Below, in pieces: positions 5,777 through 64,000 of a stretch of 64,000 nucleotides of DNA. Both the position numbers and the translations under genes were made by a program. The notes beneath the pieces are model-generated. The model did not search any database. It was not told the origin of the DNA and worked only from the letters and a program-made list of their open reading frames with translations. How positions within the stretch are numbered: position 1 is the first letter of the stretch; the number at the start of each line of letters is the position of its first letter. This DNA is from Amphiscolops sp. MND2022. Lineage: Eukaryota. The stretch is taken from NCBI GenBank assembly GCA_964187785.1, contig OZ076409.1:49230001-49294000 (forward strand), written 5' to 3'.

Positions 5777-5976
5777 NNNNNNNNNNNNNNNNNNNNNNNN
5801 NNNNNNNNNNNNNNNNNNNNNNNNNNNNNNNNNNNNNNNNNNNNNNNNNNNNNNNNNNNNNNNNNNNNNNNNNNNNNNNNNNNNNNNNNNNNNNNNNNNN
5901 NNNNNNNNNNNNNNNNNNNNNNNNNNNNNNNNNNNNNNNNNNNNNNNNNNNNNNNNNNNNNNNNNNNNNNNNNNNN
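5777..5976. other. Assembly gap (200 N)
   Basis: Run of exactly 200 N. Confidence 1.
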
Positions 5977-23200: not shown

Positions 23201-23615
23201 ACACCCGCGAATACTGACGCCACGGACCTAGACGCGCTTACACCGAACCATTTCGTGTTGGGAACTGCCAGTTCTCCGTTACCGACTACATTTCAGGCCG
23301 AAGTAGACCACTGGAAGCGGTACATTCGAGCGCAAGCGTATTCAGACGTAGTTTGGAATCGGTGTCTCAAGGAGTACGTTCCAACACTCAATCGCCGCTC
23401 GAAACGGTCGCATCCATCTGACTTAGAACTCGAAGCCGGAGATCTAGTTTGGATAGTAGAACCTACTGCTCCAAGAGGACACTATCCACTTGCCAGTGTT
23501 GTCAAGTTAAACTAAGGCACCGATGCCGTGGCTTGGTCAGAGGATGTTAAGACCTCTTCCAGCAATCTGGTCCGTCCACTTGTCAAGCTCTCTCCCGTTC
23601 TTCCTGTTCCTGAAT
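17220..23615 (+). pseudogene. BEL/Pao gag-pol pseudogene (many stops, frameshifts and deletions)
   Basis: See element entry; includes the gag core motif (WKLSQYNGDPVQWHEWFEQF, KVTYLKTLVTGK) and the integrase C-terminal block. Confidence 0.85.
18888..19562. mobile_element. ~675 bp insertion (solo-LTR-like) interrupting BEL gag
   Basis: gag reads QKFPPNM|KEAWS across the insertion (compare QKLPPNMREAWS in the young BEL); flanks AACA/AAAA resemble a 4-bp TSD; starts TGTATAAC. Confidence 0.75.
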
Positions 23616-42400: not shown

Positions 42401-45400
42401 GGTCGGTACGATCGGATGACGGCTTAGATAATCCGTAAGCGGAATGTTTTTACCGGCCGTGTATTGAATATTAATATCGAAGTGGCTCAATCTATCCAAC
42501 CAACGAGTTAACCGTGCACTGTATTGTTTGTGTGCCCGATTCTTTTTCAGTAACGGTTGTAATGCCTGGTGGTCTGTTAGCAAATTAACTCTTTTACCGT
42601 AAACGTAATATCGGAAGTGCTCTAATCCCCATAAAGCTCCCAGTAACTCTAGTTCATTTATTGCGTATTTTCTTTCGCAGTCGGTTAAAAATCTACTGGC
42701 AAAAGCTATGGGCCTGAATACTATACCTTCCTTTTGCCATAGGGTCGCTCCCAGTCCAGTATTGCAAGCGTCTGTTGTGATATAGTTGTCCCTTTTTGGG
42801 TCGAAGTGGGCAAGACACGGGGCTTCCGTAATTTCCTTCTTCAGTTGTTCAAAGTCGTCGTCTATTTCTGCTGTCCAATCCCATTTGACATCCTTTTTGA
42901 GTAATCTCCTCATTCGATCGGTTTTCTTTGACAGATTATTGATGAATTTGGATAAGTGTTGTATCGATCCAAGGAAGGATTTTAACTCCTTCACGTTTTT
43001 TGGTGCGGCTAATTTCGTAATTGCCTCCGTTTTGTCCTCGATTGGTTTTACGCCATTCTGATTAATAAAGTAGCCGAGCCAGGTTAGTTCTTTCTTGAAC
43101 AGTTCCGTTTTCTTTTCGCTGGCTCGGTATCCGGCGTTTTGTAGTTTCTTCGGTACTTCTCGCAGTTCTTTTTCATGATCATCAATGCTTCCATTCGTCA
43201 CGCAAATGATGTCATCTAGCCAAACAGGGGTTTTAAATTCTAGCACGTTGTCAATGTGTTCTTGGAATACCGTCGGAATGTCAGATAATCCGTAGAAACC
43301 CTTCTTGAAGCGGTAATGACCAGTGAAGTCTCCGCCAATTATTGAAAATACACAGTGTTTGGCTGCTTCTTTTGCTAATTTTGCCTGGCCGTAGGCGTAG
43401 TCCAGGTCTATTTTAGACATCCAGATTTCGCCTTCGCCGTTAGTTATTTTGGCGGAGATTTTGCTGATTAATTCCTCCATGTTTGGCATTGCTGCTTTTC
43501 GCTTTACGCATGCCTCGTTAAGTTTTCTTGAATCCAGGGCGATTTTGACCGACTTGTCCTTTTTGATGGTTATGACGGCAGGGGAAATAAAACAATTTTC
43601 TGTAGTCTCGTCCGCTTTCTCGATATGTCCCGATTTGATAAGTTTCTCCAGTTCATCTCGGACGCTTTTTTGAAAGTGTATGGGGACTGGTCGTCCCTTT
43701 TGTTGTATGGACTTTACATCTTTCTTCAGCTGAATGTCGATTGTTAGGTCTTTTATGGTGTGGTTGTTTTTGAATAAGTCTTCGTGTTCGTTGATAATTT
43801 TCTTTCGTCTATCTTCTTCTTCCACATAGCGGATCACATTTGTCTTTTTGCTGCCTTGTAGTCCAATTTCCAGTCTATCCAGCCAGTCCAATCCCAACAG
43901 TGGTTGTGTGTTTTTGTTCTCTGTGATCAGGATAGGTATGGTCTCTTTGCTTTTTTCCGTTTTCACTTCGACCATGGCCTCGCCCTTGAATTTGATGGGG
44001 TTTTTATTCACGTCGACAAAAGTTTTTGTCGTTTTCTTTATGTCTTTTGGTGTGATAATTGGAGGTATGATGGTCACGGGTGAGCCTGTATCAATGATAA
44101 ATTCTATTGGTTGGCCATGGACCAATAGGATTGCTTTGTAAAAGTCAATGCGGTTCACACCGTTGACGGACTGAATATGGTCAATCTCCGGCCATGGTTC
44201 GGTACTGCTGTCCGATGAAGCCGTTTCTTTTATCCGGCTGACGGTCTTGGATTTGCATACTTTGGCAAAGTGTCCCATCTTTTTGCAATTGTTGCATTGA
44301 GCCTTCCGTGCCGGACAGATATGTTCCATTGACCAGTTTGGTTTTCCACAAAAGCGGCAATCCCGGTTTGGAAATTTCTTTTTCTCGGTAAAATTTGTTT
44401 TGCGTTTCCGTGACTGGTTGGTATGGCCGATCAATTCGGTGGATGTTGAGCTGTTTGATGAATCTTTCCGGGCTTTTTTGCTTTTCGGCCTCTTGTCCCC
44501 GTATTTTCGGTTGTAATTGTCAAGTTCTATCGTGTCGAGGACGAGTTGTAATTTCAGGGGGCCTCTTATGAATTTATCACGGGCTTTTTTGTCTTTTATT
44601 GTTGATGCGAATTTGTATGTAATGATTTCCTCTGCTGTGATGTTGCCGAAGTCGCACTTTCTCTCGATGTCTACGAGTCTCTTCCAGTATTCATCGAGTG
44701 TTTCATTGTCTTCCTGCTTCATGTTAAAGAACTGTGCCCGGCTATGAAATATATTTCTTGCAGGGAGGAAAGTTTTCTTGAACAGGGTTAGTAGTTCGGA
44801 AAGATTCACTTCTTTCAGTTCACGGCCCCATTGACCTCTCATGATTTCATGTTTGGCTTTTGGGCCAAGTGCCCAGATAACATCACCTTTAATGTGGTAG
44901 ACTGTGTGGGGATCCATGTATTCTGTCCCTTCATCGATGATTTCTTCTAGATTTCGGTTATATGTCAAATGGATGTATTCCGAAATCTGCTCCCACCACA
45001 TTTTGGGATTGATTTTGGTGAGGTCTGTTTCCCTGTCTGATAGTATGGGAATTTTGTATTTGGTTTTCTCCATCCGTTCTGACGATGTTGTAGTGTTGTT
45101 CGTTCTGGATGATCGTTCCGATATATTCGGCTCACCTTCATTTAGGTTCGGATTGGTGTTGTTGTTTTCCATTGTTTTGATCAGATTGCTGACTGCGCCA
45201 TAAAGTAGGTCAGGAAAAGTTCAAAGAATGTATTAAGACTGGAATGGTTCAAAGTAACAAAGCTGTATCAAACGACTGTACTTTATCTTCAACTTGTATC
45301 TATCTGTAACTACATGACTTCAGAACATAAGATCATTGGCAGGTAGTTTTGTGTCATGTTATTCGCCAAGGTTTATCATTGACACTTGTTGGATTGACAC

Positions 45401-46352: not shown

Positions 46353-47129
46353 AAGGTTGGAAGTGATACTGGTAGGGGCTTCAACAGTCCTTACTACACG
46401 TTGCAAATACTTCTTCGTTCTTGGGATCGAATTCTCTCATTAGGAGTGAGAACAGACTATGATAGATGCTACAGCGCCTCTACTAATTCTAAAATTCATG
46501 AAAAATCTAACTATATTTCATCAATGCAATTAAACAAGATCCATTTCAGACTCAGGCTGTAAGATTTTTAGTTTTCCAGTAGCTTTAACTATTTGTTGAG
46601 AATAGCTCCACTACAACTCAATTAAACCCGTAGGTACCATGCACGAGACAAGGACTGGCTGAGTATCTACATAAATTTTTATTAACTCCGAAGAAGAGAC
46701 GAATCAACTTAATCGAAGGCGGTGGGGGTAAGTGTGACAAGGAAATCACGATCTTTACAACTTTGCTATTTTTCCCTCTTTCAGGGGTTTGTCTCGCTAC
46801 TCTTGGACTGTTTGAAATTATCTTTTCGCTGATGAAAAGAAGCAGGTTGAACTTACCATACATCAAATAAATAAGTCGAGTAATAGACACAAATACAATT
46901 TCACATCCACGAATAATAGAATGAATAATATGATAACATCGATAATAGCGGAGAATATTACTGAGTATATTAGCAGGCATATTAGGAGGCATATAACACA
47001 AGAGAACAGTAAACAAGAATTTCAGCAAGGTTAAGCTTTTGTATCCGTAAGGATGGGGGTGATATCGAAGATATCGGAAGAGTCAACTCGCCGCAAAATC
47101 TCTATCGGTCTTGGAGTGAAAACAACAAT

Positions 47130-47244
47130 CCGTGTATTATCAGCCCACTTAGGCTTAAACCGTGTATTATCAGCCCACTTAGGCTCAACCGTGTATTATC
47201 AGCCCACTTAGGCTCAACCGTGTATTATCAGCCCACTTAGGCTC
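47130..47244. repeat. 29-bp minisatellite x4 (CCGTGTATTATCAGCCCACTTAGGCTCAA)
   Basis: Head-to-tail units without spacers. Confidence 0.95.
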
Positions 47245-48299
47245 TTTTACATGTAACACGATAGACCAGCAGTCCACCCTACTCCCGGGTCGAAATCCGT
47301 ACTAGCGAAAAGCGGGGTAGCAACAAATCAGGCAACTTCAGGTTGTTAGGCTGAAGGCACGGGCTAACCGGCCAGACGAAGTAAATCTGCAATTTCGATA
47401 GTCCGGCGTCTGATGCGGGATGCTATCGGACGCAAAGCAGCAAACCGTTCTCTAGATTTCAACTCACTTTGTGTGTCGCTAAAATGGCGCACACTTCGGC
47501 CTAAGTTACTTTTTCGGCAGTTTAGTCATATCATTATTCATAGTTTATCATCTTTCCTTTTTCGGGTTCTGACTAAGTGTTGAGCAATACAGTTTTTTCC
47601 TACTTCGGTACTGAAAGTTCATTAGGAGTACATTTTCTCAGCACGAGTTTGTCCTAGTTCCACCTCCTTGTCAATCATGACTGATGGTTTTACTTCGTTT
47701 TCAATAGAATTTAAGGGGTGGTGCTACTGACTCAGTGTTTCCCACTTTTGTAAGCACGACTTGAACTTCGGCTTACTGATTGACATTTGCACCTTTTGCC
47801 AGGTCTCTTTTTCTCACGCGGTTCCTGACAACTCTCTCCAGCTAAATCTGGGTGAAGGAAATAATTTTCTACAATTTACAATGACCTAAAAGGCGATTTC
47901 AATTCATATCAAAAAAAGTCGATTTTCGTGTTACAACTTCTAAGGGCAAAAACAAGGTGTTCCGATCACGGGGGGCAAAAACCAAGTACACCATTTGAAA
48001 GTACAGATCGTGGGCTACAAAAGCTTACTCCATGGTTTTCTTTCTATTTCAACTCCTTCACAATGAAAAACGCCTTTAAAGTTTGGTAGTCAAAAATCAC
48101 CCATCGGTTTTCACGCAAATCTCAACTTTGGAGTGCTAGTACTCAGTCAATTTGAAAGATACAGGCTGGGGGTTTATATACATCGTTAGCCCAAGCCATT
48201 AGGAGTATTTTGCACTTTAGATGAGGTCTCTATCTTTTCTCAACAAAATTTGATAGTACTTTTTCTGAAAGTAGTCATTTTCCCGATTTTTATGTCTGG

Positions 48300-51221
48300 C
48301 CAACGAGTTAGCCGTGCACTGTATTGTTTGTGTGCCCGATTCTTTTTCAGTAACGGTTGTAATGCCTGGTGGTCTGTTAGCAAATTAACTCTTTTACCGT
48401 AAACGTAATATCGGAAGTGCTCTAATCCCCATAAAGCTCCCAGTAACTCTAGTTCATTTATTGCGTATTTTCTTTCGCAGTCGGTTAAAAATCTACTGGC
48501 AAAAGCTATGGGCCTGAATACTATACCTTCCTTTTGCCATAGGGTCGCTCCCAGTCCAGTATTGCAAGCGTCTGTTGTGATATAGTTGTCCCTTTTTGGG
48601 TCGAAGTGGGCAAGACACGGGGCTTCCGTAATTTCCTTCTTCAGTTGTTCAAAGTCGTCGTCTATTTCTGCTGTCCAATCCCATTTGACATCCTTTTTGA
48701 GTAATCTCCTCATTCGATCGGTTTTCTTTGACAGATTATTGATGAATTTGGATAAGTGTTGTATCGATCCAAGGAAGGATTTTAACTCCTTCACGTTTTT
48801 TGGTGCGGCTAATTTCGTAATTGCCTCCGTTTTGTCCTCGATTGGTTTTACGCCATTCTGATTAATAAAGTAGCCGAGCCAGGTTAGTTCTTTCTTGAAC
48901 AGTTCCGTTTTCTTTTCGCTGGCTCGGTATCCGGCGTTTTGTAGTTTCTTCAGTACTTCTCGCAGTTCTTTTTCATGATCATCAATGCTTCCATTCGTCA
49001 CGCAAATGATGTCATCTAGCCAAACAGGGGTTTTAAATTCTAGCACGTTGTCAATGTGTTCTTGGAATACCGTCGGAATGTCAGATAATCCGTAGAAACC
49101 CTTCTTGAAGCGGTAATGACCAGTGAAGTCTCCGCCAATTATTGAAAATACACAGTGTTTGGCTGCTTCTTTTGCTAATTTTGCCTGGCCGTAGGCGTAG
49201 TCCAGGTCTATTTTAGACATCCAGATTTCGCCTTCGCCGTTAGTTATTTTGGCGGAGATTTTGCTGATTAATTCCTCCATGTTTGGCATTGCTGCTTTTC
49301 GCTTTACGCATGCCTCGTTAAGTTTTCTTGAATCCAGGGCGATTTTGACCGACTTGTCCTTTTTGATGGTTATGACGGCAGGGGAAATAAAACAATTTTC
49401 TGTAGTCTCGTCCGCTTTCTCGATATGTCCCGATTTGATAAGTTTCTCCAGTTCATCTCGGACGCTTTTTTGAAAGTGTATGGGGACTGGTCGTCCCTTT
49501 TGTTGTATGGGCTTTACATCTTTCTTCAGCTGAATGTCGATTGTTAGGTCTTTTATGGTGTGGTTGTTTTTGAATAAGTCTTCGTGTTCGTTGATAATTT
49601 TCTTTCGTCTATCTTCTTCTTCCACATAGCGGATCACATTTGTCTTTTTGCTGCCTTGTAGTCCAATTTCCAGTCTATCCAGCCAGTCCAATCCCAACAG
49701 TGGTTGTGTGTTTTTGTTCTCTGTGATCAGGATAGGTAATGTCTCTTTGCTTTTTTCCGTTTTCACTTCGACCATGGCCTCGCCCTTGAATTTGATGGGG
49801 TTTTTATTCACGTCGACAAAAGTTTTTGTCGTTTTCTTTATGTCTTTTGGTGTGATAATTGGAGGTATGATGGTCACGGGTGAGCCTGTATCAATGATAA
49901 ATTCTATTGGTTGGCCATGGACCAATAGGATTGCTTTGTAAAAGTCAATGCGGTTCACACCGTTGACGGACTGAATATGGTCAATCTCCGGCCATGGTTC
50001 GGTACTGCTGTCCGATGAAGCCGTTTCTTTTATCCGGCTGACGGTCTTGGATTTGCATACTTTGGCAAAGTGTCCCATCTTTTTGCAATTGTTGCATTGA
50101 GCCTTCCGTGCCGGACAGATATGTTCCATTGACCAGTTTGGTTTTCCACAAAAGCGGCAATCCCGGTTTGGAAAGTTCTTTTTCTCGGTAAAATTTGTTT
50201 TGCGTTTCCGTGACTGGTTGGTATGGCCGATCAATTCGGTGGATGTTGAGCTGTTTGATGAATCTTTCCGGGCTTTTTTGCTTTTCGGCCTCTTGTCCCC
50301 GTATTTTCGGTTGTAATTGTCAAGTTCTATCGTGTCGAGGACGAGTTGTAATTTCAGGGGGCCTCTTATGAATTTATCACGGGCTTTTTTGTCTTTTATT
50401 GTTGATGCGAATTTGTATGTAATGATTTCCTCTGCTGTGATGTTGCCGAAGTCGCACTTTCTCTCGATGTCTACGAGTCTCTTCCAGTATTCATCGAGTG
50501 TTTCATTGTCTTCCTGCTTCATGTTAAAGAACTGTGCCCGGCTATGAAATATATTTCTTGCAGGGAGGAAAGTTTTCTTGAACAGGGTTAGTAGTTCGGA
50601 AAGATTCACTTCTTTCAGTTCACGGCCCCATTGACCTCTCATGATTTCATGTTTGGCTTTTGGGCCAAGTGCCCAGATAACATCACCTTTAATGTGGTAG
50701 ACTGTGTGGGGATCCATGTATTCTGTCCCTTCATCGATGATTTCTTCTAGATTTCGGTTATATGTCAAATGGATGTATTCCGAAATCTGCTCCCACCACA
50801 TTTTGGGATTGATTTTGGTGAGGTCTGTTTCCCTGTCTGATAGTATGGGAATTTTGTATTTGATTTTCTCCATCCGTTCTGACGATGTTGTAGTGTTGTT
50901 CGTTCTGGATGATCGTTCCGATATATTCGGCTCACCTTCATTTAGGTTCGGATTGGTGTTGTTGTTTTCCATTGTTTTGATCAGATTGCTGACTGCGCCA
51001 TAAAGTAGGTCAGGAAAAGTTCAAAGAATGTATTAAGACTGGAATGGTTCAAAGTAACAAAGCTGTATCAAACGACTGTACTTTATCTTCAACTTGTATC
51101 TATCTGTAACTACATGACTTCAGAACATAAGATCATTGGCAGGTAGTTTTGTGTCATGTTATTCGCCAAGGTTTATCATTGACACTTGTTGGATTGACAC
51201 ATTTTTGATGCTTGTGTCACA
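48300..51221 (-). mobile_element. Duplicated 5' half of the Ty3/gypsy element (LTR 51001-51221, PBS, gag-PR-RT-RH; ORF 48240-50972 truncated at the junction)
   Basis: 910-aa ORF nearly identical to 41954-45172 up to ...SARLTRW, then reads into flanking DNA. Confidence 0.93.
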
Positions 51222-52153: not shown

Positions 52154-52935
52154 AAGGTTGGAAGTGATACTGGTAGGGGCTTCAACAGTCCTTACTACAC
52201 GTTGCAAATACTTCTTCGTTCTTGGGATCGAATTCTCTCATTAGGAGTGAGAACAGACTATGATAGATGCTACAGCGCCTCTACTAATTCTAAAATTCAT
52301 GAAAAATCTAACTATATTTCATCAATGCAATTAAACAAGATCCATTTCAGACTCAGGCTGTAAGATTTTTAGTTTTCCAGTAGCTTTAACTATTTGTTGA
52401 GAATAGCTCCACTACAACTCAATTAAACCCGTAGGTACCATGCACGAGACAAGGACTGGCTGAGTATCTACATAAATTTTTATTAACTCCGAAGAAGAGA
52501 CGAATCAACTTAATCGAAGGCGGTGGGGGTAAGTGTGACAAGGAAATCACGATCTTTACAACTTTGCTATTTTTCCCTCTTTCAGGGGTTTGTCTCGCTA
52601 CTCTTGGACTGTTTGAAATTATCTTTTCGCTGATGAAAAGAAGCAGGTTGAACTTTAATTACTATACATCAAATAAATAAGTCGAGTAATAGACACAAAT
52701 ACAATTTCACATCCACGAATAATAGAATGAATAATATGATAACATCGATAATAGCGGAGAATATTACTGAGTATATTAGCAGGCATATTAGGAGGCATAT
52801 AACACAAGAGAACAGTAAACAAGAATTTCAGCAAGGTTAAGCTTTTGTATCCGTAAGGATGGGGGTGATATCGAAGATATCGGAAGAGTCAACTCGCCGC
52901 AAAATCTCTATCGGTCTTGGAGTGAAAACAACAAT

Positions 52936-53050
52936 CCGTGTATTATCAGCCCACTTAGGCTTAAACCGTGTATTATCAGCCCACTTAGGCTCAACCGTGT
53001 ATTATCAGCCCACTTAGGCTCAACCGTGTATTATCAGCCCACTTAGGCTC
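52936..53050. repeat. Second copy of the 29-bp minisatellite
   Basis: Part of the 5.8 kb duplication. Confidence 0.95.
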
Positions 53051-55033
53051 TTTTACATGTAACACGATAGACCAGCAGTCCACCCTACTCCCGGGTCGAA
53101 ATCCGTACTAGCGAAAAGCGGGGTAGCAACAAATCAGGCAACTTCAGGTTGTTAGGCTGAAGGCACGGGCTAACCGGCCAGACGAAGTAAATCTGCAATT
53201 TCGATAGTCCGGCGTCTGATGCGGGATGCTATCGGACGCAAAGCAGCAAACCGTTCTCTAGATTTCAACTCACTTTGTGTGTCGCTAAAATGGCGCACAC
53301 TTCGGCCTAAGTTACTTTTTCGGCAGTTTAGTCATATCATTATTCATAGTTTATCATCTTTCCTTTTTCGGGTTCTGACTAAGTGTTGAGCAATACAGTT
53401 TTTTCCTACTTCGGTACTGAAAGTTCATTAGGAGTACATTTTCTCAGCACGAGTTTGTCCTAGTTCCACCTCCTTGTCAATCATGACTGATGGTTTTACT
53501 TCGTTTTCAATAGAATTTAAGGGGTGGTGCTACTGACTCAGTGTTTCCCACTTTTGTAAGCACGACTTGAACTTCGGCTTACTGATTGACATTTGCACCT
53601 TTTGCCAGGTCTCTTTTTCTCACGCGGTTCCTGACAACTCTCTCCAGCTAAATCTGGGTGAAGGAAATAATTTTCTACAATTTACAATGACCTAAAAGGC
53701 GATTTCAATTCATATCAAAAAAAGTCGATTTTCGTGTTACAACTTCTAAGGGCAAAAACAAGGTGTTCCGATCACGGGAGGCAAAAACCAAGTACACCAT
53801 TTGAAAGTACAGATCGTGGGCTACAAAAGCTTACTCCATGGTTTGCTTTCTATTTCAACTCCTTCACAATGAAAAACGCCTTTAAAGTTTGGTAGTCAAA
53901 AATCACCCATCGGTTTTCACGCAAATCTCAACTTTGGAGTGCTAGTACTCAGTCAATTTGAAAGATACAGGCTGGGGGTTTATATACATCGTTAGCCCAA
54001 GCCATTAGGAGTATTTTGCACTTTAGATGAGGTCTCTATCTTTTCTCAACAAAATTTGATAGTACTTTTTCTGAAAGTAGTCATTTTCCCGATTTTTATG
54101 TCTGGACTTTCAACTTTGGAGGCCAATATCTCGAAACCAGGGCATTTTTCGGAAAAACGCTTCTGCTAAACGCTGTGCGCCTGGGTCTTGTGCGTCTACC
54201 CTGAAAATTTCAGCTCGATATCGCCCAAAACGTGCGGGGGGGGGTTCGCATTTTGGTAGGTCGACATCCCTATCGGCTGAAAGAAATCACAACTTTAAAT
54301 TCTTGGGGGTTCTTCGCTAGCGCACCGCAGCACTCTATTTATTATTCTATTCACTCTTCCACTTCAATTCTCAAGTACGCTGTGAAGGGGGCGGCTATTG
54401 TGCGCTTACACGTTGAGTACTACGCGATAACATGCGAAAAACGGCTTTTTAGGCCATTTTAGGGCTGTTTTTAACGTTTGCTGGCTCAGTTCTCAAAAAC
54501 TACTGAATATTATTTATTTTCCAATTAACACAAGTTAGGGCATCCATTTATCTTTAATTTAAGCCATATCCGAACAATTTCTGACAACTGTAGCGATCAC
54601 ACGAAATTTTTAAACGAAACTCAATTTTGGAAAATCGTCAAAATTTTATATGCACTTATTTTTAAAGCGTCTCCCCGAAATGTTCCCGGGGTCGCACAAC
54701 GCTCATATTCTCAACTTAAGCTCTCCTTTGGATGGGCTTTTGAATGCTGAAAACCGTTTGTTGCTATCTTTTTTCATCTTCGAGAAATCGGGTTTTGATT
54801 TTTAATTTCTATTAAGAGGGGGGATTAATTCAAAGTGTGCGGCGGCCGTTTTCTTATTAGCTACGCGTACAGCCACTCACAGCGCGTTCTAATTTTCATT
54901 CCTTTCGCTTTCTGACACGCTTAGGTGAGTTGCATTCAATGCTTATACCGCGTACTGTGAAGTTTCACTCTCGCATACCCTCAAATACACGTATTAACAT
55001 AGCGATTTTGACTAAATTCTACATACCGTGAAA

Positions 55034-55984
55034 ATGGCTTCATCTTCTAATTCTCGATCTTTAAAGTACAAAACTGATTACTCAACACGTAGTCAGAGTG
55101 TGGTTGACCGTATGAATGACATTTACAACACTTTTAATGCTAATAACACTGTTTCTGACTTTACTATAATTCATGAACTTTGGCCCCGTTTCCCCACTAT
55201 TTCCCCTGTTAATTTTAATTCTATTTCTCCCCCGCAGCCTTGCATTCTTGCCGGCGTTAATGTTCAGCCTAGGGGCATTTTAAAACAGCTTTCTGATAAA
55301 CCTGATTTAGTTTGGGCTGATTTTGAGAACATTCCTGATTATCCTTTAATTAATATTACAAAAGGCCCGGAGTATTCTGTAACTCGCGAATTTATTAATT
55401 CTATGCAAGGGGATATGGACTTTGCTAATTGTCTTACGTCTTTTTCTTTTCTTGATCAAATTGTAACTAGCTGTATAGGTTTATTAGTACAGGGCCCTTG
55501 GTTTTCGTATGCGCATATTGAAGTTGGAGGAGGCGCTTCTTATGCACTTCTGCATACGGGAATCAAAATATGGTGTGCGACCACCACTAATAGTTCTTCT
55601 CGTTTGTTAGAACGTTGCTGCAATAATGCAAATAACTTCATTGATTTCGTTCAAAGGGGGCCACGGGACAAGGAGGCTAATTATTTAAGATTTACTATTC
55701 AGCGGCCGGGGGATTTAATTTACGTTCCTAGTTTGCGGCCTCACGCCGTCCTCACCCTAGACACAGGTAAGCCTACTATTTTATCGGGGTGGGACGCGTC
55801 TACCATTGCTGATTCAACCATCATTACTCGGACACTGGATGAGTACATCATAGGAGTTCGACGTGGCACCTGGAGGAAGATTTTACGGACACAGGGCAGA
55901 GAGGCACTACGAAATTGGGTATTTACTCCCGCAAAGGGCCCTCAAGCATCTAAAGAGAATTTACGCAAACACTGGACTTATTGA
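55034..55984 (+). CDS. Intronless JmjC (cupin-fold Fe/2-oxoglutarate oxygenase) domain protein
   Basis: FSYAHIE (HxE), GIKIW, FTIQRPGDLIYVP...PHAV (distal His); ATG at 55034; AATAAA at ~56094; TGA at 55982 may be premature (frame continues 13 codons to TGA ending 56026). Confidence 0.8.
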   Translation: MASSSNSRSLKYKTDYSTRSQSVVDRMNDIYNTFNANNTVSDFTIIHELWPRFPTISPVNFNSISPPQPCILAGVNVQPRGILKQLSDKPDLVWADFENIPDYPLINITKGPEYSVTREFINSMQGDMDFANCLTSFSFLDQIVTSCIGLLVQGPWFSYAHIEVGGGASYALLHTGIKIWCATTTNSSSRLLERCCNNANNFIDFVQRGPRDKEANYLRFTIQRPGDLIYVPSLRPHAVLTLDTGKPTILSGWDASTIADSTIITRTLDEYIIGVRRGTWRKILRTQGREALRNWVFTPAKGPQASKENLRKHWTY

Positions 55985-57292
55985 GAGACTTATTGTCCGC
56001 ACTTACTTTCTAAATTATCTGTTTGATTCTTTTGTTTAATTAGTCGATAACACCCCCGGTTCGTTTTCATAACCTTGCTGAGTAATTAATTTAAATAAAC
56101 TTCTTTACTATACATACGAAAAAGGTCAAAAATCCTACACAGGCAAACTAAAAGTTTGACAAAAGTTACTACTTTTACTGGAACAACACTTTTCTATGTA
56201 TTTGTGAAGATATTACGCTCACTTCATTTTCTGACTTTTCGATGCAAGTTTTGAATGATTTTTGATTGCATGTTGCTAAAATTATTCAAGGCAGAAAAAA
56301 ATTCCGGTGCATAGTAGTATCTTGTATATCAAGATGCCAGTTTTGAATTATTATTACCTCTCATGTGCAGTGTGAGGTTTCTCAATATATACGAGTTTCT
56401 CACCTGCTTGGCGTTTTTCCTCTCGTCTACTTTTGACAAAATTCCACCACTTGGCAGCTGCCCACGCACTTAGCTCCAGTTCCCTTAATTCTAATGTTGT
56501 TCTTGCGTTGTGCAACTAAAAAAAATCACTAAACTGTTTATACTCTGAAACCCAAATCTTCAGTTGCTTTTCATATTTCATGCCTTCCAGTCAGATCGTT
56601 TACAGCAGAACCAATCTTTACTCCCATTTGAATTCTTGTAATGAGAATTGACTGAAACAAGCCGGCAACGGCATAAGGCTCAAAAACAGCAAAAGAATTT
56701 CAAAGCGTAAAAGATTTTCTTTTGAATAAATTCTCGATTCCACAGTACCAAAAAACCCAAAGGGTGACCCTTTTGGGCCCCATAAGGGCTTTTTTTGCTC
56801 TCAGCCGCACGAAAAATATATCTATTTATCAAGGCAAATTATTTTATCAAGGCTTCTATCAGAAATTTATTATTTTTTATCAACTTTTTTTTCCAAAACT
56901 ACCAAAAACCAAAATGGGAACCTTGTGATAAATAAAAGAGTTTCCGAAAAACAGTCTCAAAGTAGCAAAAAAACGCCAAAAAAACAACCCTCAATGCTTC
57001 ATTGTATTCAAATAATTCTGTCAAAATTTGAAAGGGAGGCTCCCTACGAACAATGTTCTAGTTTTAGGAGTTTCGTGAAAATTTGGCATTCGGCATGAAA
57101 TGGTCAGTTCGACCGGAATGAAAAAAAATTGCTACGAAAATTCATAGTAGTCGCGTTTTATTTCATAAAGCGCCAACTAAAAATAAAATGAACATGATCC
57201 TAAAATTTTCCGAAAATCCGGAACTTCTTGAGAACAATTTTTCAGGAATTTTCATAATGCTTGTTATTGACTGATTTGAAATCAACTAACAA

Positions 57293-58582
57293 TGTTATCG
57301 TTCGTTGTATCATCTCCTGGAAAGTCATCATCAAAGAAAAGTTCATTTGCAGCACTCTGAATTAATTAGATACAACATACTTTCACTCACAATAATGTAC
57401 TCCATTTTATAAAAAGTTGACGGATTTTCACCGGGTTTTCATGGAAGTTTCTAGTTTTCCGAGGTAGATGGCATTGAAGTACTTTCCTCTCGGGTTCGCG
57501 AGTTCCTTTTTTGTAGGACTTTTCTCTTTGATTGTGTTGGAAATATCACGGCTGCAGTAGTGTTTACACTCTCCGTGTCGCTGCTATCTGCATCGAACAC
57601 CGCCGCTCCCGCGCGCGAAGCAGAGGTGGTGCTGCTGACAGTAGTGGGCGTAGAGACTGCAGTTGTTGTGGTAGACGTTTCGTTATCTAGAGTTAGATGT
57701 CTAAACATAGCTCGTTGGAAGGAGTTGATGTCCACTCGTGGGCGGTGGGGCGGCTGGGGGTGGACCTGGAAAGATCTATCCCAGGGAGATTCTCCGTGCT
57801 GCACCCAACTCCACATATATTGATGCATCGGTGCTCTCCAGTGAAATCTAGTACTGAGGGGATTCCCCTCAGCTCTGGGGCCTTCGTCAGGCAAGGCAAG
57901 AATCCTTACCAAAGTAGCCATAAAATTGCTCCGTTCGGGTTTTTCGATGGAGGCCTGAATTACTGCCATCAGAATTTGCCGGGTCATTTCGCAGTATAAG
58001 CTCAGTCTCATCCACTGGGGATACCACAATGCGTCCAGCGGAGAGTACTTCTCCAGGTGGAAATAGATATAGTCCACGCCAGGCGCGGGTGTTTCGATTT
58101 TGTTTAATCGGTATGTAGTCAGTGGGTTTCCTGCTCGTAATGTGAGCGGCAGAACGCCTGATGTCATGGGCATATTCGCATTACGGGTGTCATCATTTGC
58201 GGTGCTGTACAATTGCGTTGGCACAAAGGCTGACAAGTTTCCTCCTTGAATATTGTAAGTATTGGCAGACGACGTAGATTGCATTTTCAAGAGTGTTTTT
58301 TTTTCTATCTTTAAGTTGAAAATAATTTTTGAGGTGGTTGCAACTGTAAACGACTGATCAGTTAAGGAACAATTTTTATACTGACTGGATTTTTTTTTTG
58401 TTATTTTTGTAAAATTTTACTTTCCCATCATTTAATTGATTGACATATCGTTTATCACAACTTTTAAAAATTTTCCCTCGTTTGTCCAAGTGGGGAACAC
58501 CGTAGAATGACCTATCAGTTGAGTTATGAGGGCAAATAAATACAGGGGGGGTGGAGTTTAGTACAAATCAGCACAAGTTACA
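57293..58582 (-). repeat. Putative 3' LTR (~1290 bp)
   Basis: On the minus strand, purine-rich GAGAAAAACCGTGAGAATATA just after the env stop is followed by TGTAAC (58582); ends ...CGATAACA (57293); partner LTR is outside the window. Confidence 0.55.
57451..58290 (-). CDS. Accessory ORF (279 aa, unknown function) inside the putative LTR
   Basis: Uninterrupted ORF, same strand as pol/env; Trp/aromatic-rich central region and Ser/Thr-rich, basic tail; first ATG at 58284. Confidence 0.7.
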   Translation of the reverse strand: MKMQSTSSANTYNIQGGNLSAFVPTQLYSTANDDTRNANMPMTSGVLPLTLRAGNPLTTYRLNKIETPAPGVDYIYFHLEKYSPLDALWYPQWMRLSLYCEMTRQILMAVIQASIEKPERSNFMATLVRILALPDEGPRAEGNPLSTRFHWRAPMHQYMWSWVQHGESPWDRSFQVHPQPPHRPRVDINSFQRAMFRHLTLDNETSTTTTAVSTPTTVSSTTSASRAGAAVFDADSSDTESVNTTAAVIFPTQSKRKVLQKRNSRTREESTSMPSTSEN

Positions 58583-58613
58583 TATATTCTCACGGTTTTT
58601 CTCGGGAAGACTC

Positions 58614-60881
58614 TCATTTTGGATGAGGCTTTGGCTTCTTCGTCTCCGTTGGGACAGAGTCACCGGTCCCTGTTTTCACTTCCTCCCGTGCGGATGTTGT
58701 GGGAAGATTCTGGAGTTGCTCTGCTATGCGAGCCAGCCGGTCTGCATCGGTTTCGTCTCCTCCTCTTCGTCTCCAACCCAGTACTCGCTGAATGCACCGC
58801 TGCATGAGGAATAGTTGTCCCTTCTTGATCGCCCAGCACAACAGTGCAAATAAAATTAAAACAATTAATGTAACAACACAAGGTAACACAATATCTTTCC
58901 ACACCTTTTTGATGACGGTTGAATGAACCTTTTCGACCTCAGTTAAAAATGGCTTAGCAATTGCGTCTAGCATTTCTTCCGTAATTGCTCGGTCTGGCAA
59001 TCCTGCTAAGTTTAATTTTAAATGAGATAACAATTCTTGATGGACATCTCCCATTAAAGAGGGAGGAATTACCTCTTCTAGGTCTTTCAGATTTTCGAAT
59101 AAAGGACGTAGTAGAGGGGTAGGCGTAATTCGGACGATTTCGCTGGCTTTACCTGTTGCACAGGATACCGGGTCAGGAGTCAAGAACAAGCCAGCGTTCG
59201 GGAGCTGCAGTCTTCCTTCACACGTAGGCCGAACTAGACAACTTTGGCATGCGGGGACTCGGTAGTCAATTGTGCCGGTCATATTTTGCATGGTAAAGTC
59301 GCCTTTGGCCGAGGTTAACAAATAAGTTGAATCGTATAAGTATATGGCTTGGGGATGCTGCGGAAGGGCTACAACTTCTTGTGCACACAACTTCAGTACG
59401 GTGGCAGGGAGATTAAAGAACAAACCGGTGAGACACGTCGTTTTCTGCGATTTAGTAGTCGAGAAAGGTTGTTTACATAGCCTAAGCCGGTGGGAGCCCC
59501 AACAATGCGTTGACAATTCTTGTTCGGTTACTTCCGCAAAATTTGTTTTATCCCAAGACATTAACAAATGTGTTTTTGTAAGTTGATATTGCGTTGCGCG
59601 TTCGGAATTGGGAATCGGTTGCGGGATTGGAGTCGCTCGATATACTTCATGAATTCCGTGTCCCGCGTACATTGGAATTTCGAGCAACATGTGTAAACCT
59701 TCATCCGTCACATACGCATCTCTTACAATTTCAAACGAATAGTAGGCGGCGATTAATTTCCTGGGGATAGCCTCATTAAGACCGGTAACATGATAAGAGT
59801 CTAAAATTTTCTTTAACGTCGACGGCGGAATTAAGGAAATTGGCAAGTAGCCATGGACTAGCGATGACATAGCTTCTTGTAGCATAGACGCCATATTAGA
59901 CAACGAAATGCGTCTCTGGTTGATATCATTAACAATTCTTTTATACTGAGTAGTTAGATTTTGGAAGGCGGCGGCTATAATTAGAGTGTTACGGTGTCGG
60001 TCTTGAGTTAGCCTAACAACACACTCTGCTTTCTCTACATAATCCGTTATTTCGTCTATCACTCCATTAACGGTGCTATTTAACATCTTGATGTTATCGT
60101 CTAAGGACTGTTTTAGCGTCAATAACTTTCGGCCTTCTACATCAGCAGGCAAGCGTACGGTTATCGCTTCTAACAGCTCCGTTCTCAAATAAACTACCTC
60201 ATCTTGTAACACTTTAATTTCTCTGGCCAGTTCTTCAATAATTTCCCGTTCTTTACTTCGGCACACGGATCCAAAGGGGATCAGGTCATCAACGAAGCAG
60301 GAGATTTTATCTGTCACGGAGCCAAATATCGGGCGCAGAAAGACATGAGCTAGCTCACTTCCGATCATCGATCCCGCTACGGTTCCAACAATAGATCGAG
60401 AGTAGCGATTAGGTTTTTCTAACGGAATGTCGTCTACCGTATGGTTAAGAAATACGGTTAGCGCTCTCCGCATTGCTAGCCAATCTTGTTGAAACATTTT
60501 ATGGCTTTGAAAAATTTCTGCAAGGTTGTCGCGCAAAAATCTTTTCCAATATTCGAATAAATGAGGATCAACACATTCATGATGGAACATACGGATATCA
60601 AGGGATACTAGTCGAGCTAATGCATTGTCCAAAATTTCGTTCAGTGGTTCCGGGTCCAATTGGGGTATTTGGGGAAACGGAATAAAAGTCCAAATGGTCT
60701 TGATAGACTTAACGAGTACAACTGGCGGTTCCGGAGTGAATGCCGCGCCGGAAATAGAATGAGTACCATTTACGAACCCGGGTTGGTTGAATCTCCGCTG
60801 GAAGTCGAAGGGGTCGAAGGTGTCTTCGTCTCCTCGAATATCACCCGTGAAAATAATGATAACAAGTACCAAAAGTTTCAT
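58614..60881 (-). CDS. env: Env-like glycoprotein, baculovirus-F/errantivirus-type class I fusion protein (755 aa)
   Basis: Signal peptide MKLLVLVIIIFTG; furin-like RYSR followed by hydrophobic SIVGTVAGSMIG; heptad repeats; GYLPISLIPPSTL and LEIPM...VYRATPIP motifs; Cys-rich region; several N-x-S/T sequons; TM IVLPCVVTLIVLILFALLCWAI. Confidence 0.85.
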   Translation of the reverse strand: MKLLVLVIIIFTGDIRGDEDTFDPFDFQRRFNQPGFVNGTHSISGAAFTPEPPVVLVKSIKTIWTFIPFPQIPQLDPEPLNEILDNALARLVSLDIRMFHHECVDPHLFEYWKRFLRDNLAEIFQSHKMFQQDWLAMRRALTVFLNHTVDDIPLEKPNRYSRSIVGTVAGSMIGSELAHVFLRPIFGSVTDKISCFVDDLIPFGSVCRSKEREIIEELAREIKVLQDEVVYLRTELLEAITVRLPADVEGRKLLTLKQSLDDNIKMLNSTVNGVIDEITDYVEKAECVVRLTQDRHRNTLIIAAAFQNLTTQYKRIVNDINQRRISLSNMASMLQEAMSSLVHGYLPISLIPPSTLKKILDSYHVTGLNEAIPRKLIAAYYSFEIVRDAYVTDEGLHMLLEIPMYAGHGIHEVYRATPIPQPIPNSERATQYQLTKTHLLMSWDKTNFAEVTEQELSTHCWGSHRLRLCKQPFSTTKSQKTTCLTGLFFNLPATVLKLCAQEVVALPQHPQAIYLYDSTYLLTSAKGDFTMQNMTGTIDYRVPACQSCLVRPTCEGRLQLPNAGLFLTPDPVSCATGKASEIVRITPTPLLRPLFENLKDLEEVIPPSLMGDVHQELLSHLKLNLAGLPDRAITEEMLDAIAKPFLTEVEKVHSTVIKKVWKDIVLPCVVTLIVLILFALLCWAIKKGQLFLMQRCIQRVLGWRRRGGDETDADRLARIAEQLQNLPTTSAREEVKTGTGDSVPTETKKPKPHPK

Positions 60882-61341
60882 CCTGCGACTATACTAGCGA
60901 GTCGGAAGAGGACGAAAGTTGATAATAGGGTATAATAAGATAGCACAAGACGATAATAGGTTTTTTTTAAAGGTTTCTAAAGCGTAATACGGGAGGCAAA
61001 AGTCGATCGAATTGATTGTAGAGTTGATAACTACAATTTTTCTATTCTAGCGACTGGCTAAGTTGAGGTTAAATTACGGAATGAAGCAGAGTCGATAGCG
61101 ACACGGATGACGCTCTTTTTCTGACTCAGCACCTCGTGACGGACTGTTCGAGCTTACGTTAATTCGATTAGTCATGCTCGCGAACGGCTAAACGAATGAT
61201 GAGCTTCATTACTTCGGATGACTCAACTCACCTGACCATCACCCGAAGACATCATTGTTATTTTGGCTTTACCACGTGTTCGTCTATGCCGAAGCGTACT
61301 GGCGGTCGACGATTCCGTGTCGTTTCGATTATCAGCGAATC

Positions 61342-63003
61342 TTAACGTTCGCTTTCGTTGTCCTCCTCGTCTGAAGGAGGCGAAGTATTTCTATTGTCGT
61401 TTATTTCTTCATAAACAGGAAATGAAGACTCCTCTGACGGTGCGGGGACGTCTATATACAACGGGCAATTAGTCCGAGTAGTCTCTTCGTCGTTTTCGGC
61501 GCTTATCACGCGGGGAACGTCATGAAATGACACGTGCGGCCGGTTTTTATTGGCTTGGATTTCCGCCGAAGTAGGGCGGAACACATGATACGGTCTATTT
61601 TCGGTCTCTTGGTCGGATGAATCGGATTCATCTGCGACTTCTTCATAACTCGGAAGCGTTTTTGTTGCCACTCGTTCGGATCGTTTCGGGAGGGATTCGC
61701 CAAGATACGGTTTAAGACGATTAAAATGGATATTCTGCCACTTTTCCGGGCAACCTGGCTTGCAAATCTGATAGTTCACTTCACTGGTCTGACTCAATAC
61801 TTCGTATGGACCGTGCCAAGGGAGATGGAACTTTCGGGATTTCGCTTTGTGTGGCTCGAATAACCACACTCGGTCTCCTGTTTTAAAACTTTTTCCATGG
61901 ACCTTTTTCTGATAATAATCCTTCTGACGACGTTGTTCTTTCCCCATAGTCAGTTGCGCATGACTATGTACTTCGAATAGTTTATCACTCAACTCGGCTC
62001 CTACCTCGCCTAATTCTAAACGGGGGTCGCCAGGAGGTTTCGGATAGAATAAGTCGATCGGATATTGTGCTTCTCTCCCGTACAACATCGAAAACGGGGT
62101 CGTACCGAGGGTCTTATGTACGGTGGTATTGTACACAAAATTGACGTGGGGCAAGTAGAGATCCCACTCCTGCGGTTTTTCGGCGCAATACTTAGAAATA
62201 GTATCGGCAATAACTCTATTGAACCTTTCTACTTGACCATTTCCTTGGGGATGATACGGAGAAGTCCTAGTTTTATCGATCATGAAAACTTGGCAAATAT
62301 CTTTCATTACTTCACTGTTGAAGTTAGTTCCTTGATCCGTATGTAAAGTATCGGGAGCCCCAAATTTCAAAATCCACTCTTCGACTAAAGTCGTGGCCAC
62401 CGTCTTAGCCGTCATGTCTTTCAAAGGAACGGCAACCGCATACTTTGTATACAAATCGGATATAACTAAAATGTATCGCGCCTGTGACTTTTTCGCTAGC
62501 GTTACGGGTCCCAAGATATCTGCTGCAACAATACGAAACGGCGCCTTTGCTTCGATTGTTTGCAAATGAGCTTTTCGACCTTTTCCCGCCGTTGATCTAG
62601 CCGCGCAACGCGTGCATTTTGCAATATACTTTTCTACACTTGACCTGAGACCAGGCCACCAAAATCTCTGTTTAATCCTTGATAACGTTTTCTCGGCTGC
62701 AAAATGACCTCCGCTAAGAGGGGAGTCATGTAACTGATATAACACTTCGGCTCTCATAGTCGAAGGAACTACTGCCTGCCATATTTCACGTTCACGATTG
62801 CTAGGTTTCCATTTTCGATAAAGGACTCGATTGGCCAGCGCTAGCTGATCCCAATCACTCCAAAGTTCTAACGCTTCTGGACAACTCCATCCTAATGCTA
62901 CTTCTCTGGGGATGGGGTTGGGCCCTAAATCTTCCAATGTACCATCTATCCGAATTCCACGTCTAACCATTTCACGGAATAGTAATCCCGTACTACGATC
63001 CAT
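61342..63003 (-). CDS. Ty3/gypsy integrase (pol C-terminus)
   Basis: HDSPLSGGHF...CTRC; AADILGP, HTDQGTNF, SPYHPQGNGQVERFNR; GPY motif WHGPYEV. Confidence 0.95.
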   Translation of the reverse strand: MDRSTGLLFREMVRRGIRIDGTLEDLGPNPIPREVALGWSCPEALELWSDWDQLALANRVLYRKWKPSNREREIWQAVVPSTMRAEVLYQLHDSPLSGGHFAAEKTLSRIKQRFWWPGLRSSVEKYIAKCTRCAARSTAGKGRKAHLQTIEAKAPFRIVAADILGPVTLAKKSQARYILVISDLYTKYAVAVPLKDMTAKTVATTLVEEWILKFGAPDTLHTDQGTNFNSEVMKDICQVFMIDKTRTSPYHPQGNGQVERFNRVIADTISKYCAEKPQEWDLYLPHVNFVYNTTVHKTLGTTPFSMLYGREAQYPIDLFYPKPPGDPRLELGEVGAELSDKLFEVHSHAQLTMGKEQRRQKDYYQKKVHGKSFKTGDRVWLFEPHKAKSRKFHLPWHGPYEVLSQTSEVNYQICKPGCPEKWQNIHFNRLKPYLGESLPKRSERVATKTLPSYEEVADESDSSDQETENRPYHVFRPTSAEIQANKNRPHVSFHDVPRVISAENDEETTRTNCPLYIDVPAPSEESSFPVYEEINDNRNTSPPSDEEDNESER

Positions 63004-63034
63004 TCTCTGACCATACGCTAGGTCGCTATCTGAT

Positions 63035-63600
63035 CTAGTCCATGAGATATGCCCCCCCCACTTGCTCTGATATTAACATTTCTTCAGGGGTAACGACGGA
63101 ACAGGCGGAATCTGCACTTGATGAACGCGGGGTACCTCGTCTTGCCGAAGTCGAAGGGTACAATTGCTCTTGGTCTCTCGGTGTATACACGGAGATCGTA
63201 AAATACGAATCTTGAAACACAACCTCTAGACAAATAGCTACATTCACCCACTCCAATTCGTCATCGACGCAACCTATTCTAGGCATTGCAAGTTTGGAAA
63301 TTCCATGGGAGCTAGCATGTTCTTTCACTCTCAATAGACTTTCTTTTAATACATCGTATTTGGCAACTTCTCCTTTACAATGCTTGGTGATCAATATGTA
63401 CACATAACGTCCTTTTCAACATCTTGGTACACTAGAAAACCTCCAACACGATTTACCGACTCTGCGAGAGGTGGTAAATGGGAATACTTTTTTACGAACG
63501 ATTTCATGGGAGCAGTGGCTACTCTCATGTCGGCAGATACACACAAAACTAAGGAATCGGGGGATTCGAAAAAATCCCCTTCTCGATAACGGACTACCTC
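63035..63600 (-). CDS. TARG1/OARD1 (Poa1p/DarG-like) macrodomain within pol, split by a frameshift at ~63410
   Basis: VRYREGDFF...SLVLCVSADM...(fs)RYVYILITK...YDVLKESL...GISKLAMPRIGCVDDELEWVNV...LEVVFQD..FTISVY. Confidence 0.8.
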
Positions 63601-64000
63601 TCTAGGTGGGTGAGAAATTTGCATTTTCAAATGCCGAGCTACATCCTCTGAGTTTTCCAATTTCTCACGAGCTTTGGTTCGGGCGGCTCTAAGATCGCGT
63701 TCGGCTTCAAACAAAGCACTATCAAATTCGGTGAATTCGGGGATCGGTCCCCTTAACGCATCTTCTTCGCCGGGGAGCCATTGGGGTACGTCATTCGGTC
63801 GTCGACTAAGACCGTCCGCATTGCAATGTTTATCACCTGGACGATGTACTATTTGATAGTCATATTCCTGAAGTTTCTGAACCATTCGAAAAGTCATTCC
63901 ATCCGCATTTTGTCTAAACAACCATTGAAGACTTGCATGATCTGTGCGAATAATACATTTGGATCCGTAAATGTACGGTCTGAACCACTGGACGGCTTGA
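63601..64000 (-). CDS. Ty3/gypsy RNase H C-terminal part and linker (partial, runs off the window)
   Basis: AVQWFRPYIYGSKCIIRTDHASLQWL...LQEYDYQIVHRPGDKHCNADGLSR. Confidence 0.92.

Follow-up and report, generated by a model that had tools for sequence, protein, structure and literature searches.

What an env-bearing retrotransposon encodes beyond its replication and envelope genes, and to what end, is the question raised by the right-hand part of a 64,000-nucleotide stretch of Amphiscolops sp. MND2022 DNA (contig OZ076409.1, positions 49,230,001 to 49,294,000; "the window"), which was analysed together with the adjoining ~10 kb beyond window position 64000 and further genomic copies. The element that lies there belongs to a multi-copy Ty3/gypsy family with the order gag - pol(PR-RT-RH-macro-IN) - env - ORF4 (PR, protease; RT, reverse transcriptase; RH, RNase H; macro, macrodomain; IN, integrase; ORF, open reading frame) and a length of ~18 kb when all parts are present. 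Since env-bearing gypsy elements of non-insect animals have already been published, env alone is not new, and the backbone of the element is of a known kind; the interest comes from an antisense ORF for a JmjC-type protein inside the long terminal repeat (LTR), rather than from the features flagged in a preliminary description of this DNA, which missed that ORF and whose coordinates do not reach it.

The JmjC ORF (55034–55984, plus strand, antisense to the element) lies at the 5′ end, the inferred U3 region, of the 3′ LTR (52359–56139, minus strand), which is 3781 bp long, has TG...CA ends and shares 99.4% identity with its 5′ counterpart outside the window (L011, 3562–7339). It encodes 316 amino acids in the window copy and 330 in nine of the 12 copies read, and of two AATAAA signals on the antisense strand the closer one is ~110 nt beyond its stop codon. 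An H161-x-E163...H237 triad and K178 are present, the former of which we take from JmjC enzymology to be the metal ligands and the latter the 2-oxoglutarate (2OG) ligand; the metal and 2OG ligands are invariant over 12 sequences whose identity falls to 13%. The genome holds 35 full-length matches at 95–100% identity, 32 of them stop-free, usually paired 14.2 or 11.7 kb apart, the spacing of both LTRs of an element, and all eight full-length matches in a subfamily whose JmjC is 57% identical are open. The ratio of nonsynonymous to synonymous substitution rates (dN/dS) is 0.12–0.13 against six 82–84% identical copies and 0.13–0.15 against two 57% copies, where dS is near saturation, and the frames opposite the ORF contain 14–35 stops.

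The features of a 2OG/Fe(II) oxygenase, namely the HxD/E...H triad, the 2OG-binding lysine and a cupin-type fold, were recognized from the sequence and a predicted model. Among 55 relatives, 14 match the Pfam family JmjC and 29 match JmjC_2 at E ≤ 0.1, and five related element-borne ORFs clear the Pfam cut-off. A profile of element JmjC ORFs (A3) searched against PDB gave JMJD6 (E 3e-5) and then KDM7, KDM2A and PHF8 only (16 of 16 rows), and all 13 Foldseek matches of the model at E ≤ 0.001 are JmjC enzymes, with the KDM6-type UTY level with JMJD6; the top four in VIA are JMJD6, JMJD5, TYW5 and PHF2. The single sequence and a profile of close relatives gave no match in PDB, and a representative-library search collected 383 proteins, with no named outside relative among the 150 matches listed, which are mostly of fragment length. 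Relatives of neither the JmjC protein nor env were confirmed in viral_contigs, nor of the JmjC protein in metagenome_contigs.

How general is this arrangement within the family? The genome match counts for env, ORF4 and the macrodomain are lower bounds: at least 62 matches for env (59 of 769 candidates scored), 22 of them full length at 97–100% identity and 18 of those 22 stop-free; at least 26 full-length matches for ORF4 at 96–100%, 25 stop-free; and at least 150 for the pol macrodomain at 88–100% (150 of 1146 candidates scored). Ten env-bearing copies have an open 1610-codon pol frame in six cases, ORF4 in eight and the JmjC-type LTR in three. When every seventh pol match was taken as a sample (20 of 150), env and ORF4 were found in four copies (env unbroken in two), with ORF4 always beside env, and the JmjC LTR in four, two of which also have env, while 14 copies lack env, ORF4 and JmjC alike. 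The cargo is thus modular and the full architecture a minority, with parts gained and lost independently among copies; the commoner LTR variant is 3.0 kb long and JmjC-less, with 0.44 kb of unrelated sequence in place of the JmjC region. Eight env-less copies share no common sense ORF longer than ~110 amino acids as an alternative cargo. The full architecture also occurs in the diverged subfamily (env 75%, ORF4 56% and JmjC 57% identical; two copies mapped), so it is old and not a chance product of the window locus. The preliminary description had staked its reading on env and the extra ORF recurring within the LTR pair of other copies; both do so, but 16 of the 20 sampled copies lack env. Its suggestion of recent activity agrees with the near-identical env copies and with LTR pairs 99.1–99.9% identical in six of six copies compared. 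The dN/dS comparison across copies that it proposed was made, and env, ORF4, the macrodomain and the JmjC ORF are all under purifying selection; this supports its idea of accessory functions, which number three and not two. A non-autonomous derivative with the structure LTR(JmjC)-ORF4-LTR(JmjC) and without gag, pol or env was also seen (L046–L047; G000 C7:22.433–22.447 Mb).

The JmjC ORF is not confined to this family. Scanning the genome for JmjC yielded 62 matches, the majority multi-copy. In a second env-bearing gypsy lineage (L082–L085 and L104–L105; G000 C7:12.009–12.021, C12:55.300–55.312 and C4:73.66–73.67 Mb) a JmjC ORF lies antisense between pol and env, and the terminal direct repeats are ~0.45–0.5 kb; its RT is 28–30% identical to that of the window family and its env distantly homologous (hhalign 99%). 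With the JmjC of this lineage as query, 130 matches were obtained, many paired ~7 kb apart. Of eight further regions that were fetched, seven have a JmjC ORF that is antisense and 3′ of pol, and one has no pol in view; three regions scanned are BEL/Pao by Peptidase_A17, and in three regions the ORF is in both LTRs. These BEL/Pao elements (L092–L099, L106–L108) have antisense JmjC ORFs of 270–340 codons in LTRs of 1.4–1.9 kb or just 3′ of pol. A copia ORF near the JmjC-bearing repeat in L108 was considered as its owner, and this was not supported. The other element-borne JmjC ORFs are 13–22% identical to the window JmjC, with no change in either histidine, in the lysine or in several core residues, and they have a smaller proportion of nonsynonymous (pN) than of synonymous (pS) differences, with dN/dS values of 0.22, 0.39 and 0.51 and two pairs saturated. 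In addition, two dispersed repeat families of at least 18 kb with copies ~99.5% identical (L074–L081, L086–L091; G000 C7:8.645–8.665, C1:6.283–6.303, C1:26.45–26.47 Mb and others) encode a KDM2/7-like JmjC, SET (Pfam E 2.5e-8 and 3.8e-11), BRCT, a C2H2-like finger and tandem arrays, along with a stretch that looks Tudor-like by eye, and no transposase or RT was recognized in them; they may represent an undescribed type of giant element that combines a chromatin writer with an eraser.

The host offers two pieces of context. Among five host-type JmjC matches inspected there is no close host gene for the window JmjC. The two best DNMT matches (two of five tested) are DNMT2-like genes (L129, L130), with no DNMT1/3 among those tested, where an intron-split DNMT1/3 could escape, and the observed/expected CpG ratio in the window is 1.0, that is, without depletion; together these point away from 5-methylcytosine (5mC) as the target of the JmjC protein.

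What, then, might the protein do? We give about even chances to a putative counter-silencing function, in which it strips repressive methyl marks from histones or demodifies silencing proteins. The gag and pol frames overlap, with a TTTAAAC heptamer at the overlap; the element would express Gag-Pol by a -1 frameshift and Env through splicing, and the JmjC ORF would be a separate antisense transcription unit that reverse transcription copies into both LTRs in each round and that lone LTRs retain. Its product would be a nuclear Fe(II)/2OG dioxygenase directed against host silencing, and if it acts in trans, as proposed, the JmjC-less and env-less majority of copies would ride along. Antisense JmjC ORFs in unrelated elements suggest a shared way of escaping silencing. 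More broadly, and only tentatively, as something that may well not hold in full, we propose that Ty3/gypsy and BEL/Pao elements of this animal lineage share a family of self-encoded chromatin erasers, which would be transcribed antisense within the LTR or 3′ region, would multiply as LTRs are duplicated and would include the first histone demethylase encoded by a retrotransposon, within an anti-silencing toolkit (JmjC, TARG1-like macrodomain, SET + JmjC giant repeats) in a host seemingly without DNA methylation.

Several observations weigh against the counter-silencing demethylase. The window protein is a sub-threshold Pfam match (19 vs 24 bits, E 0.002), its predicted model is poor (predicted local distance difference test, pLDDT, 46), the best VIA match has Z 6.3 with a root-mean-square deviation of 4.2 over 160 residues, the top profile match is JMJD6 instead of a KDM, and the protein carries no reader domain such as PHD or Tudor. 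The presence of JmjC in only four of the 20 sampled copies makes it dispensable in cis. In a rough FastTree tree the window JmjC stands apart from those of the other elements, and the tree settles neither its origin nor its KDM-subfamily placement; a single shared cassette is therefore not established, and there may have been one capture or several.

The prominence of JMJD6, which is mainly a lysyl hydroxylase (PDB title), favors a reading that we consider rather unlikely overall, in which the protein is JMJD6-like and active as a hydroxylase or as an arginine demethylase, its substrates being the primer tRNA or proteins of RNA processing or small-RNA pathways (splicing, export, PIWI/Tudor contacts) instead of histones. 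JMJD6 leads both the profile search and VIA, where JMJD5 and TYW5 follow, and several element JmjC families are stand-alone domains with a basic C-terminal tail; however, the remaining profile matches are only KDM7, KDM2A and PHF8, Foldseek places UTY level with JMJD6, and other repeats of the genome encode JmjC together with SET domains. TYW5 among the VIA matches would also fit a protein that oxidizes bases in element RNA or cDNA or reverses a host base mark, as has been proposed for the TET/JBP enzymes of fungal DNA transposons (Kojima 2025, PMC12730594, accessible part), but the fold matches JmjC and neither TET nor AlkB, CpG is undepleted and no DNMT1/3 was among the two matches tested, so this function is improbable. 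Least probable is that the element passively carries a fragment captured from a host gene, or that the protein is a decoy without catalysis, the cargo having no role in replication: the 14 of 20 copies without env, ORF4 and JmjC and the commoner JmjC-less LTR would suit it, but dN/dS of 0.12–0.15 across divergences near synonymous saturation, invariant catalytic ligands, the lack of a close gene among the five host-type matches and the same antisense placement in unrelated superfamilies all speak against it.

Most of the counter-silencing genes that have been described for mobile elements come from DNA transposons, and as far as we are aware animal retrotransposons are thought to evade silencing by regulation, without a chromatin enzyme of their own. 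With a selected, ligand-intact JmjC protein encoded in LTRs and recurring across superfamilies, the host mark that is removed becomes testable with a 35-kDa enzyme. If a counter-silencing function is true, LTRs, lone LTRs included, can code for protein and thereby work in trans, and the enzyme would name the transposon-silencing mark in a host without sign of 5mC. The HTLV-1 (human T-cell leukemia virus type 1) gene HBZ and the MMTV (mouse mammary tumor virus) gene sag are separate genes located in the LTR or towards the 3′ end, HBZ being antisense; the likeness to the window JmjC is one of placement, and neither encodes a JmjC-class enzyme.

Published systems provide closer comparisons, made here with the available parts of each paper unless noted. 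The preliminary description regarded env-bearing Ty3/gypsy elements as best characterized in insects, but they are described from many non-insect phyla, F-type env included, under the name "ancient errantiviruses" (Chary and Hayashi, eLife 2026, PMC13524379). Like these, the window element has gag-pol-env between LTRs, is multi-copy, and has an env with signal peptide, furin-type site, hydrophobic peptide and transmembrane segment, and its primer site matches the 3′ end of the ancient errantivirus tRNA-Asn(GUU) at 10 of 12 bases; a host primer tRNA was not found by exact pattern in the genome. Unlike them, it has a macrodomain bridging RNase H and integrase, a fourth ORF, LTRs of 3–3.8 kb and an LTR-borne JmjC; the main text and seven supplementary files of PMC13524379 contain neither "JmjC" nor "macro" as a domain. 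LTR elements of bdelloid rotifers (Rodriguez et al. 2017, PMC5408684), one clade of which has a paramyxovirus-like env, likewise carry enzymatic extra ORFs (DEDDy exonuclease, GDSL esterase) common to unrelated retroelements, but there they are ORF3s downstream of pol, in a text without "JmjC" or "macro", and the window enzyme is antisense and within the LTR. The fungal TET/JBP case is again an Fe(II)/2OG dioxygenase swapped among unrelated lineages with a proposed anti-silencing role, but of another enzyme family and with a DNA substrate, and the accessible part of PMC12730594 reports that no retrotransposon with TET/JBP was found; the case in the window is a JmjC in animal LTR retrotransposons. 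In the literature as represented by titles and the first parts of abstracts, with Repbase, GyDB, Dfam and subscription papers outside its scope, we found no retrotransposon-encoded JmjC or macrodomain.

The macrodomain in Pol (63180–63610, approximate bounds, minus strand) lies between RNase H and integrase and is split by a frameshift in the window copy, where its Pfam match is weak (E 0.025); the same domain from another genomic copy matches human TARG1/OARD1 in PDB with E 3e-21. Equivalents of TARG1 K84 and D125 (residues per the available part of PMC6397177) are kept in the alignment, and dN/dS is 0.10–0.13. The published TARG1 pattern with an intact GxG loop, TKx(30,35)Px[IL]GxGxD, fails at the second glycine of this phosphate loop, which is valine in 12 of 14 relaxed-pattern matches among the fetched loci and isoleucine in the 57% subfamily; the other two of the 14 keep the glycine, with a motif as in the gypsy family H macrodomain. 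The element version thus differs from TARG1/OARD1 (C6orf130) and DarG macrodomains (PMC6397177 and PMC9967889, in the parts available) in its position in Pol, in the valine or isoleucine and in the loss of the N-terminal glycine-rich loop. The ADP-ribose-related module of the preliminary description therefore stands as a fold, while its activity is doubtful because the TARG1 pattern breaks at the second glycine; as read from its sequence, it may be a hydrolase of changed specificity or a binder. As a part of Pol, it would act on the complex for replication or integration, either binding ADP-ribose there or removing it, and by analogy we infer that it may have a protective role during replication: L1 silencing in mammals has been linked to ADP-ribosylation (PMC4695847, accessible part) and TARG1 removes ADP-ribose from DNA (PMC9967889, likewise). 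In a second gypsy lineage of the genome, a TARG1-like domain that keeps the published pattern comes after integrase. At L100:4603–8637, the macrodomain that lies C-terminal to integrase in a gypsy pol is TARG1-like (E 3e-23) and retains an unaltered GxG loop; an antisense JmjC ORF comes next, and a close relative (RT 99% identical) has no macrodomain match. Macrodomains may have been annotated in some gypsy polyproteins before, so that the element macrodomain may already be known.

The env ORF (58614–60881, minus strand) is an open frame of 755 codons inside the LTR pair. Its N-terminus is hydrophobic, and another hydrophobic stretch comes after RYSR at 159; further features of the sequence are predicted long helices, a cysteine-containing β-rich region, a transmembrane segment at residues ~656–690 and four N-glycosylation motifs; signal peptide, furin-type site, fusion peptide and transmembrane segment are thus all present, with both peptides judged by eye. 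Directly before its ATG are a pyrimidine tract and an AG, a possible candidate splice acceptor. Compared with the subfamily copy, pN is 0.17 and pS 0.82, and CpG-biased substitution among env copies is weak at most (nine of 38 transitions). That env is F-type, as first described, is likely rather than certain. It has no match in Pfam, with none of 20 aligned env proteins matching Baculo_F or Fusion_gly, and none in PDB at E ≤ 0.001, where profile, Foldseek and VIA comparisons gave helical-bundle matches and nothing firm. The weaker evidence in favor consists of an atlas score of 0.91–0.93 to Baculo_F/Fusion_gly clusters, of low recognition value, and Foldseek matches in BFVD to viral glycoproteins including baculovirus F (E 3e-7 to 1e-5) from a model with pLDDT 49 and a template-modelling score of ~0.2.

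ORF4 (57451–58284, minus strand), between env and the 3′ LTR, had been described as a 279-residue, LTR-borne ORF. It is 277 amino acids long from its ATG and is not in the LTR, since it precedes the polypurine tract; its end is ~280 bp from the LTR in other copies. The misplacement probably arose because a 1.2-kb duplicate of host DNA (56140–57361, minus strand), a copy of the 5′ LTR flank, replaces the polypurine region in the window copy only, by rearrangement or assembly error. ORF4 has a conserved core at residues ~40–195 and an S/T-rich tail with a basic patch, and its dN/dS is 0.09 and 0.11 against two 72% identical copies, both stop-bearing. No Pfam family, no PDB match (with a four-sequence profile) and no usable atlas match was found for it. 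With low confidence, its sequence could be that of a small regulatory or env-associated accessory protein, and its retention in the env-less LTR-ORF4-LTR derivative argues against a helper of env only.

The remaining structure is that of a Ty3/gypsy element, with an LTR pair with TG...CA ends, a target-site duplication, a primer-binding site and a polypurine tract, the last read in six of six other copies and missing from the window copy. A 5-bp target-site duplication (52354–52358, minus strand) follows the 3′ end, and the same five bases precede the 5′ LTR outside the window; as it marks the LTR ends, it fixes the LTR at 3781 bp, and the 5.0-kb direct repeat 52359–57361 was rejected as the LTR, 1.2 kb of it being the duplicated host flank. 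LTRs in the family are 3.0–3.8 kb long and target duplications 5 bp. The integrase frame (61342–63072, minus strand) is uninterrupted and has H2C2, core and p58-type C-terminal domains (PF17921, PF00665, PF22938) and an acidic tail, and the C-terminal part of RNase H (PF17917) occupies 63860–64000 on the same strand. The minus-strand order RNase H - macrodomain - integrase - 755-residue ORF - further ORF given in the preliminary description is borne out by ORFs and Pfam, as are the uninterrupted integrase, env and extra ORF of the window copy. The gag, protease, RT, primer site, 5′ LTR and target duplication that it expected past position 64000 were all found there; gag, upstream of pol, has 464 amino acids with a CCHC knuckle and a PF00098 match. 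The order PR-RT-RNase H-IN was confirmed by Pfam in the open pol frame of another genomic copy. Three frameshifts interrupt the pol of the window copy: one splits the macrodomain, one separates it from integrase, and one, outside the window, falls between protease and RT. The integrase of this copy is out of frame relative to upstream pol.

Other repeats lie elsewhere in the window. A 1.75-kb piece of the same LTR (46558–48299; 3′ part, 99%) sits between near-identical copies of an unrelated gypsy gag-pol (41954–45220 and 48240–51020), the second of which is cut by the LTR sequence, which suggests local duplication. There is a run of N near 5700–5900. Two BEL/Pao-like elements were recognized by ORF motifs at 17800–23515 and 32425–37097, the first degraded and the second with two long open frames, and identical LINE-like (long interspersed element) RT fragments of 170 amino acids are found at 157–669 and 3068–3580, 2.9 kb apart.

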